From the IMG/VR virus record IMGVR_UViG_3300028603_000003: DNA of 64,000 nucleotides; one strand, written 5' to 3'. Positions 33,416 to 38,922 of this stretch are shown piece by piece (the first letter of the stretch is position 1; every line of letters starts with the position of its first letter). Both the position numbers and the translations under genes were made by a program. The notes under the pieces were generated by a model, which had not been told where the DNA came from, made no database searches, and saw nothing but the letters and a program-made list of their open reading frames with translations. Origin of the DNA: a virus (Duplodnaviria > Heunggongvirae > Uroviricota > Caudoviricetes).

Positions 33416-33722
33416 GTTCTATTCTCTTGTACCTATTTTTATATTTATTTAAATCTATAACCCAGAGATAACAATCGTTCGTTTCTTCTTCCATAGTCGC
33501 AAATGGAACAGAGTGGCCTTTGAATCTCCAAATCTTTACCTTGTGCACATTCTTGGAAATCAGATAGTCGATTAGTTGCTTCATGTTTTTTCTGGTAAGC
33601 TCTCCTTGCGCTGAGCCTATAACGCAAATACAAGGAAGCTCGTAGTTTAAAACTAAGGTGCAGGTTCTAGTTCCTTGTTCGTCGTGGAACTTTGCTGTCT
33701 CAATCAAAGGTTCAATAATCAT
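33408..33722 (-). CDS. Hypothetical protein
   Basis: 104-aa ORF overlapping both neighbours in the late operon. Confidence 0.6.
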   Translation of the reverse strand: MIIEPLIETAKFHDEQGTRTCTLVLNYELPCICVIGSAQGELTRKNMKQLIDYLISKNVHKVKIWRFKGHSVPFATMEEETNDCYLWVIDLNKYKNRYKRIEHV

Positions 33723-35242
33723 TGGTTAACTTGACACACAGATAAAATTGCTGATGGAACAGAAGGGCAAAATGCGGTTGCAGGTTCTCCTGACAAACTT
33801 ACGTTCGTGCTATCTGTTGCCCACATCAATTGAAAATAATCATTCGGAAGCATAGAGACAACAAAGTTCCAAGCTGGCGCTAACTTTCCTCCGTTTTCAG
33901 AAATTGTTAGGTTTGTTGCTGAGTGTGGAACATCGACTCCGTTCTTTCTATACCAGACCCATATATTTCGCCGGGTGCTGTTTGTGCTAGTAAATTGCAA
34001 TGAGAATTCAAAATTGAATAATCCTGAGTTCTGAGCAATAATTTTTGACTTGTCAACTGGGTCTTGAGTGAATCCGCTGGTAGGGTCTTGTAACCCGAAT
34101 CTAATAGGGTACGCAGTGTTTGGTGCTGCTGCTGTTTGGTTTGTCTCGTCGTGCCAGTTTCCATAATAGAGTCTTGGGAAAATGTTCGGTCTGACTAGAA
34201 GAACTCCAAGTGTCGGAGAAACTTTAAGCACGGTCCCTATCTTAAGTTTAACGTTTGGTGCTGTTGGGCGATTCTTGGTTAGCTGACCGGGAATTGTTGG
34301 GTGTGCAAAAAGAATGTCCCCCACTGCCCACGTTTCTCCCACTGTACTCCCAGTTGTGTTTAGCTCTCTTACCTTTCCTACAGCGGTGGCCCTTCCTGTG
34401 CCGCCCGGAGCAACGTCATTTGTTAATACACCGATTACATATTCTGGAATTGAATTTGCGTCGGCCACGAACTTCTCGACAGTTGGCTTTACCCAACCAT
34501 TGAATCCGTAAGCTCCTGCGAACTTTACAACCTCACCCTGTGATAATGTTGATGCGGTCCCATTATAAACTTCAATGTAAGTTTCCAATCCGACTTGGCA
34601 GGTAGAGCCGTCATTTTGGTACACGTCAATGCAATCTTCATTATGATTCCAAGCAATCATTCCGGGAACAGGAGTTACCTGCGGACCAGAATCTTCGAAT
34701 GTGAGAGAGTTTATCTTTCCCTGATCACCAGAAATATACCCAAAGTAGAATTTTTTGGTATCTGGATCATACCTCAAAATATGATCTGGATTGCCAACTG
34801 AATACCTGTCAACATCATCAAGATTTTTCAGTCTCACCTCACCAGAGCCATATGAGCCTAGATATGTCGTCGAAAGATAATTTTCAATTCCTTTTACCCT
34901 AGACTCAAGACTTGTAGATTCTGTTAGTCGAGTCTTCTGCTTTAGAATTTCGTATGCCTCTTTGACTAAGTCGATTTCTGGCTCTGTGCTCGCCTCTACA
35001 GTAGGAGAAAGCAACACTTCTTCTAATATTTGTGGTTGCGGCTCTTCTGTTGATTTTTCAGGAGTATTCACGAAACTCTTTGAGGATTTCTTTTCCCTAA
35101 TTTGCTTTGCGAGTTGAAGTGCTTTTTTTTCTTTTACTTCCTTTAACTCTCTGTGAACAGAATCATCCACCGAAACCCCAAGGGCTTCTGAAAATTTTAT
35201 CAGAGTTTCGATTTCTCTTTGCTTGTCAAATTCTTTTTTCAT
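33719..35242 (-). CDS. Fibre-like virion protein with a C-terminal TNF/BclA-C-like jelly-roll domain
   Basis: Charged N-terminus, GSGEVRLKNLDDVD linker, capsid-cement-like middle, C-terminal QNSGLFNFEFSLQF...WYRKNG.DV...WNFVV......YFQLMW. Confidence 0.6.
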   Translation of the reverse strand: MKKEFDKQREIETLIKFSEALGVSVDDSVHRELKEVKEKKALQLAKQIREKKSSKSFVNTPEKSTEEPQPQILEEVLLSPTVEASTEPEIDLVKEAYEILKQKTRLTESTSLESRVKGIENYLSTTYLGSYGSGEVRLKNLDDVDRYSVGNPDHILRYDPDTKKFYFGYISGDQGKINSLTFEDSGPQVTPVPGMIAWNHNEDCIDVYQNDGSTCQVGLETYIEVYNGTASTLSQGEVVKFAGAYGFNGWVKPTVEKFVADANSIPEYVIGVLTNDVAPGGTGRATAVGKVRELNTTGSTVGETWAVGDILFAHPTIPGQLTKNRPTAPNVKLKIGTVLKVSPTLGVLLVRPNIFPRLYYGNWHDETNQTAAAPNTAYPIRFGLQDPTSGFTQDPVDKSKIIAQNSGLFNFEFSLQFTSTNSTRRNIWVWYRKNGVDVPHSATNLTISENGGKLAPAWNFVVSMLPNDYFQLMWATDSTNVSLSGEPATAFCPSVPSAILSVCQVNQ

Positions 35243-35274
35243 GCGGTTCTCACCATGTATGCGCCCAAAATAAA

Positions 35275-35307
35275 AAAGCCACTTTACCTATTTAGGAAAG
35301 TGGCTTT
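35275..35307 (-). terminator. Terminator hairpin after pagL with a late promoter in its apex
   Basis: AAAGCCACTTT-N11-AAAGTGGCTTT; CTAAATAG at 35288-35295 on the minus strand. Confidence 0.7.
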
Positions 35308-35325: not shown

Positions 35326-35784
35326 TTAGAATTTGAATCTTAGCTGAATTCCGTCAATACCTGTGTTTGGGCGGTGAATGCCAGCAGAAGAGTAGTGGAT
35401 ATATTCTACTTGAAAAACTTTCCACTCCAAGCCGACACCCAGTCTGAAGTTTGTGTCTCCTACTAGTGGGCTTCCGTCTTGGTAAGAAACCCCAATTCGG
35501 TAGTAGTTTTTTCCACCAAGGAATGTCCAGTCTGGTCTGACAAGGTGAGACAAAGAGAAGATGTTTACCGTGCCTTGGTCGCCTCGCTTTGTGCTTCCGT
35601 GTCCGATTTGAGTGGCATCAATCTCAATGCCTTTGTACTCGTACCCGATGCTCCCGAAAGCCATAGAAGAGTTTGCCGCGGTGTGACCCAAACTTACTCT
35701 CCATCCGTCTTCGGCTCTCGCATCATATGCAGCCAAGATTAGAATGACGATAAATGCGATTACAGCAATCTTTGTGAAGTTCAT
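35326..35784 (-). CDS. pagL: PagL-like lipid A 3-O-deacylase (outer-membrane beta-barrel)
   Basis: Signal peptide MNFTKIAVIAFIVILILAAYDARA, alternating beta-strands, terminal Phe; IHYSSAGIHRPNTGID aligns with PagL IHYSNAGLKQPNDGIE (His, Ser, Asn and acid retained). Confidence 0.75.
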   Translation of the reverse strand: MNFTKIAVIAFIVILILAAYDARAEDGWRVSLGHTAANSSMAFGSIGYEYKGIEIDATQIGHGSTKRGDQGTVNIFSLSHLVRPDWTFLGGKNYYRIGVSYQDGSPLVGDTNFRLGVGLEWKVFQVEYIHYSSAGIHRPNTGIDGIQLRFKF

Positions 35785-36203
35785 AGTTTAAGTGCCTCTT
35801 GTAGTAATTTGTCTGCATCTAGTTTATGTGGTTTGTCGATGCCGAGTGCAGCGCCAATAGACTCAAAACAAACCCAGTGTTTGTCGTTGTGGCCGACGAA
35901 CGGAAGCACAAACCGGATGATGTTTCTGTAGTCATATGGATCGCCATCGTGTTTTGCAAACCAAGCAAGGACTCTTTTCTTTAGCTCTGGATCGTCAGAA
36001 ATTTCAAACACATCCCATCTTCCGCTTTCCAGATCGATTACCTTTGATCTTACACCTCCGTCTCTGCTCGAAGAAGAATAGCAAACGCCATCCACAACAA
36101 TTTCTGCATGGGAATATTTACTAAAAGTCCAGAGACGAATCGAGTAATGAGAGATTGAGTGGGCCACATCTTCAGGTGGCCCCTTATACAATGCTATCTT
36201 CAT
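35781..36203 (-). CDS. Permuted papain-like NlpC/P60 enzyme (YiiX/YaeF-like)
   Basis: His in YSHAEI precedes Cys in WVCFE, with GDPYDY between them, as in permuted NlpC/P60. Confidence 0.75.
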   Translation of the reverse strand: MKIALYKGPPEDVAHSISHYSIRLWTFSKYSHAEIVVDGVCYSSSSRDGGVRSKVIDLESGRWDVFEISDDPELKKRVLAWFAKHDGDPYDYRNIIRFVLPFVGHNDKHWVCFESIGAALGIDKPHKLDADKLLQEALKL

Positions 36204-36206
36204 GGC

Positions 36207-36689
36207 TTATAGGAAAGAAGGAATTTCATCAGGTCTTGCCGGTGTGTTAATAATAGCGTCAAGTTCTTCGGTTGTTAGCCTGAATGACTCTGGAATAGAA
36301 GCGCCAGTCAGGAACGTCACGTCGGCACGAGTGTCCTCTCTTTCCAAATCAATGTAAGTTGCGAGATTGAATGTTTCAAAGAAGTCGTCCATATTGGGGT
36401 CAACCGCTGAAGCTGCCTTAGATGCCATCCACTTTGCACGGGGAAAACGATTCTTGAATGCCAGTTTAGTAATCTTCCAAGTTTCGATTACTTCAGGTTC
36501 GGGTTCCACAGGTGGGCTAAATTCTCCTGTGGTTGGATTATAGGTCCAACCCGGACCTGATACTGTTTCTTCTTCTGGATAATCAAGAAGAACTACATTG
36601 TCGTATTCGGGGGAAATCTCGGATACATAGTCAGGGTCTGCCACAATTACATTGTGGACAACATTGTTTTTTACTAAAGCGTATCTCAT
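36207..36689 (-). CDS. Tail fibre assembly / chaperone-like protein
   Basis: MRYALVKNNVVHNVIVAD...GPGWTYN...F.PP N-terminus and ITKLAFKNRF...A..IDL C-terminus typical of fibre-associated proteins. Confidence 0.65.
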   Translation of the reverse strand: MRYALVKNNVVHNVIVADPDYVSEISPEYDNVVLLDYPEEETVSGPGWTYNPTTGEFSPPVEPEPEVIETWKITKLAFKNRFPRAKWMASKAASAVDPNMDDFFETFNLATYIDLEREDTRADVTFLTGASIPESFRLTTEELDAIINTPARPDEIPSFL

Positions 36690-36703
36690 TTACTATACTC
36701 CGG

Positions 36704-37489
36704 TTATTCTGTCCAAAAAACAATACATATGCCCTGACCGCCACCGCCGCCTGCTCCGTTGCTCCCTCCTGCTCCAACGGAGGCGACACCTGCGCCCCCG
36801 GCTGCTGCTCCTGCACCTCCGTCTAATCCGCCAGCACCACGGCCACCGGCGGTGGGCGTCCCGCTACCACCGCCACCGCCGAAGCCCGCACAGCCCTTTC
36901 CACTTTGTTGGGTATCGAATCCTCCGTCCCCACCCGTAGCACCACCTGATGAACCATACGAACCATAGACAGCGGGGGATGCATAAGAGTCATATCTGAT
37001 GCGGCCACCGCCGCCTATTCCGCCGCCTATTCCGCCGCCACCCCCTCCCCCTTGTGCTGTAGCTACATTTCCAAACTTGCTATCGCCCCCGGCACCTCCC
37101 GAGGTTGCCCCGGTTGCTGGACCTCCAGCGCCACCGCCGCCAATAACAACTGCCTGATTTCCTCCAGCTATAGCCGCGACAGAAACAGGTACGGTCAAAA
37201 CTTGCCCGCCGCCGCCGCCGCCTTTTGCTCCACCATAGAATCCACCACCGCCACCGCCACCGTAACCGCCACCGCCACCGCCACCGACGGCACCGCCACC
37301 ACCACCGTAACCGCCGCCGCCGCCGCCATAACCTGCGGCAACAGCGCCAGCCCCACAGCCGCCGCCACCGCCGCCAACAAGCAGAATATTAACTGCACTA
37401 ACTGAAGCTGGCTTTACCCAAGTCCCACTCGCCACAAATGTTTGAGATTTAATTTTTACCCCGCCTAAAAATTGACTGAGCATGCTCAT
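36704..37489 (-). CDS. Glycine-rich adhesin (gp38-like polyglycine domain)
   Basis: SQTF..SGTW.KP..V....ILLVGGGGGG...GGGGGQGICIVFW; many GGGGG(Y/F) segments. Confidence 0.75.
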   Translation of the reverse strand: MSMLSQFLGGVKIKSQTFVASGTWVKPASVSAVNILLVGGGGGGCGAGAVAAGYGGGGGGYGGGGGAVGGGGGGGYGGGGGGGFYGGAKGGGGGGQVLTVPVSVAAIAGGNQAVVIGGGGAGGPATGATSGGAGGDSKFGNVATAQGGGGGGGIGGGIGGGGRIRYDSYASPAVYGSYGSSGGATGGDGGFDTQQSGKGCAGFGGGGGSGTPTAGGRGAGGLDGGAGAAAGGAGVASVGAGGSNGAGGGGGQGICIVFWTE

Positions 37490-37878
37490 GTTAAAGACTC
37501 CTTTATTTTTTTGTCTATTGCATCTGTTGCAACAGTTTTAATGTTTTGGTGTACTACCCAATCTAATCCAGTTGACGGAATGAAAGTCATTGCAAATATT
37601 GCAAACGGCTCATCACATTCCATATTTTCTTCTAGCCCCATTATCTTATTTCCGTTTCTGTGTATTGTTAGTGAGTTTGCTGCCCACGATCCATAATAAT
37701 CAGAAACTATTATCTTCATTCCGGGCATTGGGGATGAAGGCAGAACCAAAATTCCACGTTGATTCCAAGTATTCACAAAATAACTCTTTTCGTGTCTGAC
37801 GTACTCATATGAGTATTCGTCACCGGAATTTATATGTAGTTTATCCGAGGTGAAAAGATAGAATTTTCCATAGTCCAT
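37486..37878 (-). CDS. Tail fibre / baseplate-type protein (gp9/gp10-like beta domain)
   Basis: LVLPSSP..G..I.VSD..GSWA.N.LTI.RNG.KIMG.....D motif. Confidence 0.6.
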   Translation of the reverse strand: MDYGKFYLFTSDKLHINSGDEYSYEYVRHEKSYFVNTWNQRGILVLPSSPMPGMKIIVSDYYGSWAANSLTIHRNGNKIMGLEENMECDEPFAIFAMTFIPSTGLDWVVHQNIKTVATDAIDKKIKESLT

Positions 37879-37894
37879 TTGTAGTTTCTCGAGT

Positions 37895-38701
37895 TTAAAT
37901 TAATTTCCATCCTATAGTTGAATTGACGTACAAGAACGTCACTGTGAAATTTTCTATGTCAATCGTAAAATTTTCTGCAATTGACATAATATTTGATCCG
38001 TTTCTGGCTACCGTAGTATCAGTGAACTCTCCAACTCCTACAGTAACTTCCCATCCGGCAGAAGGAGTTGCAGGAAGAGTGATCGTTCTTCCGGCAGCAG
38101 TTACAAAGCATCTCTCCAGATTTACCAGAGTCTTAGAAACAGCAGTTGTGGTTGTTGTATATCCACCTTGTTTGGCATCGAGGGCTGCTTGTAATCCAGT
38201 AACGTTTGCGATTGTGTGTGCGTGGCTATTGTCTTGGACTGTTACTGTCAGTGAAGCATTAGCCGAACCGTCAAAAGACGCAGAACCTGTCGCATCCCCG
38301 GTTAGCTCGATTGTTCTGGCGGTTGTCAGCTTTGTTGCGCTAAGAACATTTTTTGTCGAGTCAGCAGTGTTGTCAACGTTTGCTAGTCCAACATCAGACT
38401 TGGTTAAAGTCACCGCCCCTGTTTTTCCAGCTACCGAAGTTACAGGCACAACGATAGCCCCAACAGCATCTTGAACGAAGGCTGTAGTTGCCACCTGCCC
38501 AGTGTCTGTCCCTAGAGGTGCAGTCGGCGCAGTTGGGATGCCTGTGAATGTGGGGTTATTTGTTGGAGCCTTAGACGCCAAATCTTCTTTGATTGAGCGA
38601 AAGTTTCCGTCAACTTCCAAGTTTGTCAATGGAGAATTTTTAACTACCGTTGCTGGCGGAATAGTCGCCGAATCCGAAGTTCTGTAAATTAGGTTTGCCA
38701 T
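37895..38701 (-). CDS. Short tail-fibre-like protein
   Basis: LTN.EVDGNF N-terminus, PTFTGIPTAPTA..GT.T.QVATTAFV, VTSVAGKTGAVTL..SDVGL.NVDNT, and a gp9/gp10-like C-terminal domain. Confidence 0.7.
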   Translation of the reverse strand: MANLIYRTSDSATIPPATVVKNSPLTNLEVDGNFRSIKEDLASKAPTNNPTFTGIPTAPTAPLGTDTGQVATTAFVQDAVGAIVVPVTSVAGKTGAVTLTKSDVGLANVDNTADSTKNVLSATKLTTARTIELTGDATGSASFDGSANASLTVTVQDNSHAHTIANVTGLQAALDAKQGGYTTTTTAVSKTLVNLERCFVTAAGRTITLPATPSAGWEVTVGVGEFTDTTVARNGSNIMSIAENFTIDIENFTVTFLYVNSTIGWKLI

Positions 38702-38703
38702 TT

Positions 38704-38922
38704 TTACTCTTTATCTTTTTCTTTGGTTAATACCATAACAAGCTTTGCAAGCTGGTCAACAGTATCGGACAAGTTTTCGATTTTGTCTGTCAACCTATTT
38801 ATAACATCTTGTTGTTGCTTGTACTTCTTGTATTCGGTTTCTTTCTTAACGATTATATTGCCGAGAGAATCCTTATAGACTCCCTCGACAATTTTTCCGT
38901 TTTCGTCTTTCACTCTCATCAT
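38704..38922 (-). CDS. Small coiled-coil baseplate-associated protein
   Basis: RV....G.YKD...G.I......EY..Y plus a coiled coil, as typically found after DUF4815-type genes. Confidence 0.55.
   Translation of the reverse strand: MMRVKDENGKIVEGVYKDSLGNIIVKKETEYKKYKQQQDVINRLTDKIENLSDTVDQLAKLVMVLTKEKDKE

Follow-up and report, generated by a model that had tools for sequence, protein, structure and literature searches.

PagL is the lipid A 3-O-deacylase of Pseudomonas aeruginosa (structure 2ERV), Salmonella and Bordetella, an outer-membrane enzyme that is encoded by a PhoPQ-regulated chromosomal gene. We analyzed a 64,000-nucleotide (nt) stretch of Caudoviricetes DNA (IMG/VR record IMGVR_UViG_3300028603_000003), hereafter the window, in which a 152-residue open reading frame (ORF) specifies a PagL-like protein. 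The two proteins share a ~150-residue, eight-stranded outer-membrane β-barrel, the spacing of the catalytic residues, a signal peptide and a C-terminal aromatic residue. In contrast to PagL, the phage protein is virus-encoded, in a unit with tail-fibre genes. It is ~20–24% identical to 2ERV and carries a Ser in place of the Asn after the catalytic Ser and an Asp in place of the Glu, and its activity is a predicted one. Judged by its sequence, the product of ORF 35326–35784 is a member of the PagL family, with a likeness far above chance; through it, the phage probably remodels the lipid anchor of the host outer membrane at a late stage of infection.

Phage-driven changes to the sugar part of lipopolysaccharide (LPS), through O-antigen conversion, are known, as are phage-encoded outer-membrane proteins without catalytic activity. 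Lom of phage lambda, with Ail and OmpX, resembles the PagL-like protein in being a small eight-stranded outer-membrane barrel, phage-encoded near tail-fibre genes. However, Lom is the non-catalytic product of a moron expressed from the prophage, whereas the PagL-like protein keeps a hydrolase triad and its gene is translationally coupled to late genes. Llp of phage T5 and the Cor-type proteins inactivate the phage's own receptor; their genes also lie beside receptor-binding genes, and the role proposed for them, guarding progeny from debris and blocking superinfection, could be shared. Llp, a lipoprotein made early, acts by stoichiometric binding of FhuA, whereas phage PagL is predicted to be a late enzyme acting on lipid. 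At lysis, the outer membrane is breached by other phage factors, spanins and disruptin. Like the predicted action of phage PagL, theirs is late and directed at the outer membrane; in several phages, the PagL gene lies beside holin and endolysin genes. Spanins and disruptin have no sequence or structural relation to phage PagL, which would act enzymatically on LPS rather than by membrane fusion or peptide insertion, and whose part in lysis is putative. A literature search found no natural phage-encoded PagL, nor any natural phage enzyme that modifies the lipid anchor of LPS; the phage PagL clade is apparently both recurrent and undescribed.

The gene and its main elements are located as follows.

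35326..35784, minus strand: PagL-like gene, product P0001, 152 residues (ORF call and Pfam)
35713..35784, minus strand: predicted Sec signal peptide, residues 1–24, cleavage after ARA (heuristic)
35353..35397, minus strand: catalytic motif His130-x-Ser132 ... Asn140 ... Asp144 (alignment with PagL)

The start of the gene shares 4 nt (ATGA) with the stop of the upstream gene, and a ribosome-binding site (AAGAGG) lies ~11 nt 5′ of the start codon. The N-terminus, MNFTK-IAVIAFIVILILAA-YDARA/ED, combines a basic residue (K5), a 14-residue hydrophobic core with a 12-residue Kyte-Doolittle mean of up to 3.7, and an A-x-A site; the signal peptide call is a heuristic reading of these features. Residues 129–144 read IHYSSAGIHRPNTGID, and the last residue is Phe152. 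Thus, the signal peptide, small-barrel pattern, terminal Phe and motif from which an earlier, sequence-only reading of the window had proposed a PagL-like lipid A deacylase are all present in the 152-residue product, the first of them by heuristic.

Several profile and sequence comparisons agree with the identity proposed in that reading. The protein matches Pfam family PF09411 (PagL) over residues 69–151 with 28.9 bits, above the gathering score of 23 (E = 1.4e-6). No other Pfam family was matched at E ≤ 1, including those of Ail/Lom/OmpX and OmpA. The NCBIfam models gave no match, and the sole match among the PHROGs is marginal, to an unnamed family. A phmmer search of the PDB sequences identified P. 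aeruginosa PagL 2ERV (E = 0.0097) and paired IHYSSAGIHRPNTGID with IHYSNAGLKQPNDGIE of 2ERV, at chain positions 125–140. When a profile of the phage clade was aligned with 10 chromosomal PagLs by hhalign, the probability was 97.9% (E = 4e-13) for 119 columns spanning residues 28–151. Homology to PagL therefore extends beyond the C-terminal motif.

In the phmmer alignment, His130, Ser132, Asn140 and Asp144 of the phage protein correspond to His126, Ser128, Asn136 and Glu140 of 2ERV, where the numbers are positions in the 2ERV chain. Asn136 is the residue that we take to contribute to the oxyanion hole. A Ser-His-Glu triad and an oxyanion Asn are credited to PagL in a review (PMC4402001), from which the roles of the residues were taken. 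The His-x-Ser, Asn and acid recognized in the sequence-only reading thus align at identical spacing, with the qualification that the acid is Asp144 where PagL has Glu140. An Asp also occupies the acidic position in chromosomal PagLs (L055, L061–L063 and L066), so that the change from Glu to Asp falls inside the variation of the family.

The AlphaFold2 model of the protein, computed with 22 relatives as input, consists of an N-terminal helix followed by β-strands (predicted local distance difference test, pLDDT, 92; predicted template modelling score 0.80). Its structural matches are eight-stranded outer-membrane barrels, headed by 2ERV, with PagL ranked above all non-catalytic barrels. His130, Ser132, Ser133, Asn140 and Asp144 are invariant across the 22 relatives, which are 38–75% identical. 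More widely, the pattern H-x-S-x7-N-x-G-x-acid is retained in 143 of 149 non-canonical family members, and 131 of those 143 have a Ser next to the catalytic Ser and an Asp as the acid. Each of the 149 members starts with a hydrophobic leader, and the C-terminal residue is mostly F, W, Y or L.

The window belongs to a T4-like myovirus and spans its structural and replication region, with genes for the major head protein, portal, sheath, large terminase, baseplate wedge and hub proteins, a gp46-like nuclease and a helicase. The capsid protein shares ~60% identity with its counterparts in Synechococcus myophages and in the Methylophilales phage Melnitz. Six genes between 38701 and 35326, spaced by −4 to +16 nt and ending with the PagL-like gene, encode, in order, a 268-residue tail fibre, a 130-residue fibre/tailspike-like protein, a 261-residue Gly-rich protein, proteins of 160 and 140 residues, and PagL. 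The elements around it are listed below.

38796..38803, minus strand: TATAAATA, T4-type late-promoter motif in the 217-nt gap 5′ of the six-gene unit (motif match)
36207..38701, minus strand: the four upstream genes of the unit, for the 268-residue tail-fibre, 130-residue fibre/tailspike-like and 261-residue Gly-rich proteins and a 160-residue protein with no assigned function
35781..36203, minus strand: 140-residue permuted NlpC/P60 (YiiX/YaeF, C92-like) protein, translationally coupled to the PagL-like gene
35266..35307, minus strand: intrinsic terminator, a 14-bp hairpin with one bulge followed by UUUUUUAUUUU, 19 nt past the PagL stop codon

The TATAAATA element is the sole ATAAATA-type motif in the six-gene stretch and its upstream gap, and the window as a whole holds 5 such late-promoter motifs compared to 1.56 expected. 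The terminator hairpin has a folding free energy of −18 kcal/mol (z = −3.97), and none of 200 shuffled sequences was as stable; a simple terminator scan did not pick it up, probably as a consequence of the bulge in its stem. Since the six genes form a tight unit with this motif upstream and a terminator downstream, we infer with good support that the PagL-like gene is expressed late, together with the fibre genes. The sequence-only reading had placed the gene at the end of a fibre/adhesin operon and had supposed late expression; the position is now delimited from motif to terminator, and the timing is deduced from the same sequence signals.

Members of the divergent PagL clade reside almost exclusively on phage contigs and in prophages. 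A word-based search recovered 56 relatives, almost all of them metagenomic and one on a Global Ocean Virome contig; a few are labelled as acyloxyacyl hydrolase, in Microbulbifer and Denitromonas. An exhaustive search of 1.84 billion representatives yielded only 74 clusters (50% identity) at E ≤ 1e-3. Phage-type PagL occurs at 39 loci in IMG/VR, compared to 4 loci in 185,579 genomes (one per species). All four of these loci sit behind long fibre-type genes, and two have the same context as prophage entries of IMG/VR. No DNA match to 6 kb of the window was found in the deposited phage collection by megablast, and tblastn of P0001, of a canonical PagL and of a distant member (P0082) detected no homologue in 50,697 deposited phage records.

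The comparison with bacterial PagL that the sequence-only reading had called for was made with a quick tree (Shimodaira–Hasegawa-like approximate likelihood ratio support, midpoint root), whose branching is indicative rather than proof. Nine of the 10 chromosomal PagLs fall together in one clade. The phage-type copies from bacterial genomes nest among the viral sequences, and copies from T4-like contexts are intermixed with those from lysis-gene contexts. Both types occur in Microbulbifer sp. HZ11, with a canonical PagL (73.9 bits) elsewhere on the chromosome and a prophage copy (30.9 bits). This chromosome (L055) offers a natural system for comparing the two within one bacterium.

The arrangement seen in the window recurs among the relatives. 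A same-strand ORF lies within 400 nt upstream of PagL in 40 of 41 distinct loci; the gap to the upstream gene is ≤15 nt in 26 of the 41, and the two genes overlap in 20, often by 4 nt. The genes 5′ of PagL are of fibre or fibre-chaperone types (Peptidase_S74, DUF4376, Collar-domain fibres and a tfa-like cluster). The gene on the 3′ side codes for a small membrane protein with a single pass in 15 loci, and in a group of P2/Mu-like contigs a lysis cassette takes this place; genes for a holin, an amidase or an M15 endolysin directly follow PagL in L015, L022, L023, L039 and L050, among others. Of the two attributes of a moron, its own promoter and its own terminator, the window's gene has the terminator alone, and the 4-nt overlap leaves no space for a promoter. 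The tight spacing and overlap with upstream fibre-type genes thus indicate that PagL is built into late operons rather than being an autonomous moron.

The small downstream protein (L009:6095–6319 and 14 other loci) is conserved, 51–97 residues long, with one N-terminal transmembrane helix, and its gene often overlaps that of PagL by 7 nt. None of the PHROGs matches it, and the window lacks it; it could be a partner of PagL or holin-like. In a T4-like relative (L048:2275–4997), a diversity-generating retroelement, comprising an mtd-like target, bAvd and a reverse transcriptase, lies two genes upstream of PagL in the same fibre region.

The PagL gene is an exchangeable accessory cassette and not part of the core of these phages. 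In L052, the closest relative of the window's phage, an unrelated 233-residue gene replaces the 5′ four-fifths of PagL. What remains at L052:6164–6319 is a decayed 3′ remnant, the last ~75 nt (…AGIHSPNKGIDRIQLRFKF), which has lost the His-x-Ser but keeps the terminator hairpin. The remnant and the unrelated replacement gene together mark the locus as a hot spot of cassette exchange at which PagL is dispensable.

We give a probability of roughly 75% to the explanation that the protein is an active serine esterase of the PagL family that acts late, in the outer membrane, and deacylates lipid A. The protein would be synthesized together with the tail-fibre proteins late in infection and be exported through the Sec pathway, whereupon the β-barrel assembly machinery (BAM) of the host would insert it as an eight-stranded barrel into the outer membrane of the infected cell. 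The triad Ser132-His130-Asp144, with Asn140 as the oxyanion residue, would then cleave an ester-linked primary acyl chain off lipid A, which by analogy with PagL would be the 3-O chain, and the outcome would be an outer leaflet with under-acylated LPS. This explanation builds on the family, the fold, the conserved catalytic residues, the export signals, the position in the operon and the phage-borne distribution, all of which are observed here.

Several points weigh against it. Substrate and position specificity are transferred to the whole clade from PagL by analogy. The phage clade is divergent, scoring ~29–36 bits on the Pfam PagL model compared to 70–156 for chromosomal PagLs, and carries a Ser at the position of PagL Asn129. 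The sequence-only reading had been concerned that a non-catalytic barrel might prove to be the best structural match; 2ERV heads the structural ranking, although Foldseek by itself does not tell PagL from OprF (E = 4.9e-4 and 4.2e-4, respectively). The promoter of the unit is a motif match, and its function as a promoter is putative. Finally, the nearest relative has lost PagL, so that any benefit of the gene is conditional.

The divergence is also the starting point for a different account, which we consider improbable, in which an active outer-membrane esterase of the PagL fold acts on another ester, such as another position of lipid A, a mislocalised phospholipid or lysolipid, or a host-specific glycolipid. 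Consistent with it are the score of ~29 bits against 70–156 and an H-x-S-S in place of H-x-S-N that is invariant in the clade. The nearest cultured phages infect Synechococcus and Methylophilales. However, homology covers the whole barrel, the spacing of the catalytic and oxyanion residues is identical to that of PagL, and 2ERV is the top structural match; we also know of no PF09411 member with another substrate, which we count against a change of substrate here.

The remaining accounts dispense either with a role in the lytic cycle or with catalysis. The gene could be a lysogenic-conversion moron that alters host lipid A, for cationic peptide resistance, immune evasion or membrane fitness, and a mere recombination passenger in the T4-like phage. 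Morons classically occupy the slot behind fibre genes, copies reside in Microbulbifer and Denitromonas prophages, and the loss of the gene from the nearest relative would suit a passenger. Nevertheless, most loci lack space for a promoter (a gap of ≤15 nt in 26 of 41, with 20 overlapping the upstream late gene), and gp13–gp17 and baseplate wedge genes in the vicinity mark many carriers as T4-like. Phages of this kind do not form lysogens, and their copies keep the catalytic residues, which makes this account very unlikely. We give the least credence of all to a non-catalytic barrel, like lambda Lom or Ail/OmpX/OmpA, that masks a receptor or blocks other phages and retains PagL residues as relics. 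Relics would not be expected to stay invariant, as the His, Ser, Asn and Asp do down to 38% identity, or to be kept in 143 of 149 members; moreover, the sole Pfam match is PagL, which also outranks the non-catalytic barrels structurally.

If the protein is indeed a late lipid A deacylase, its most plausible pay-off, to which we would nonetheless give somewhat less than even odds, is a loosening or vesiculation of the outer membrane shortly before and in the course of lysis, with which the last barrier of the envelope gives way. This pay-off fits the late timing and the adjacency to lysis genes. A more tentative suggestion, which fits the linkage to fibre genes, is that an alteration of the LPS reduces the binding of progeny or superinfecting phages to the dying cell and its debris. 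Deacylation of lipid A, however, takes place far from the sugar epitopes bound by most fibres and leaves them unchanged, which weakens the idea of receptor alteration. Other roles account for the remaining probability. An aid to lysis, receptor editing and exclusion were the putative roles suggested in the sequence-only reading, whose interpretation is supported in part. A broader proposal, which we regard as unlikely, is that PagL is an enzymatic lysis factor that supplements or replaces spanins in many marine and environmental phages, with debris that is a poorer sink for progeny as a side effect. Produced together with the last of the structural proteins, PagL would then strip the acyl chains of lipid A, and the outer membrane would fail or vesiculate after the action of holin and endolysin.

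If the clade is active, lipid A remodelling would join the means by which phages manipulate the Gram-negative envelope, with a bearing on how the outer membrane is breached at lysis, how vesicles arise in the sea and how much endotoxin lysates contain. Since the clade is widespread on viral contigs, its members are small and Microbulbifer thermotolerans, Microbulbifer sp. HZ11 and Denitromonas iodatirespirans IR-12 are cultured prophage carriers, it is easy to test.

The 261-residue protein (36704–37489, minus strand), inside the fibre operon, consists mostly of Gly runs (GGGGGYGGGGG...) and has no family match; local GC content is raised to 48.5% along its gene, and GC skew is strongly negative. 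Beyond the terminator, a 507-residue gene (33719–35242, minus strand) starts ~24 nt past the U-run and is without a late-promoter motif of its own, and thus may depend on read-through of the PagL terminator. It is absent from L052, and the 233-residue gene there was considered as its counterpart and rejected as unrelated.

The gene immediately upstream of PagL encodes the 140-residue protein. Its model (pLDDT 90.5) is best matched by a cysteine peptidase from B. cereus (3KW0, E = 4.7e-5) and by E. coli YiiX (2IF6), and His32 and Cys112 are invariant in its family; thus, it is a permuted NlpC/P60 protein of the C92-like type. It has no signal peptide. The pairing with PagL is found again in L071 but not at the other PagL loci compared. 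An obligatory two-gene lipid cassette was rejected, as a marine virus contig and a Microbulbifer prophage have unrelated genes 5′ of PagL, and L052 carries the NlpC/P60-like gene (88% identity) without an intact PagL. Relatives of the 140-residue protein (n = 163) are very common in marine phage contigs, mostly in tail-fibre regions.
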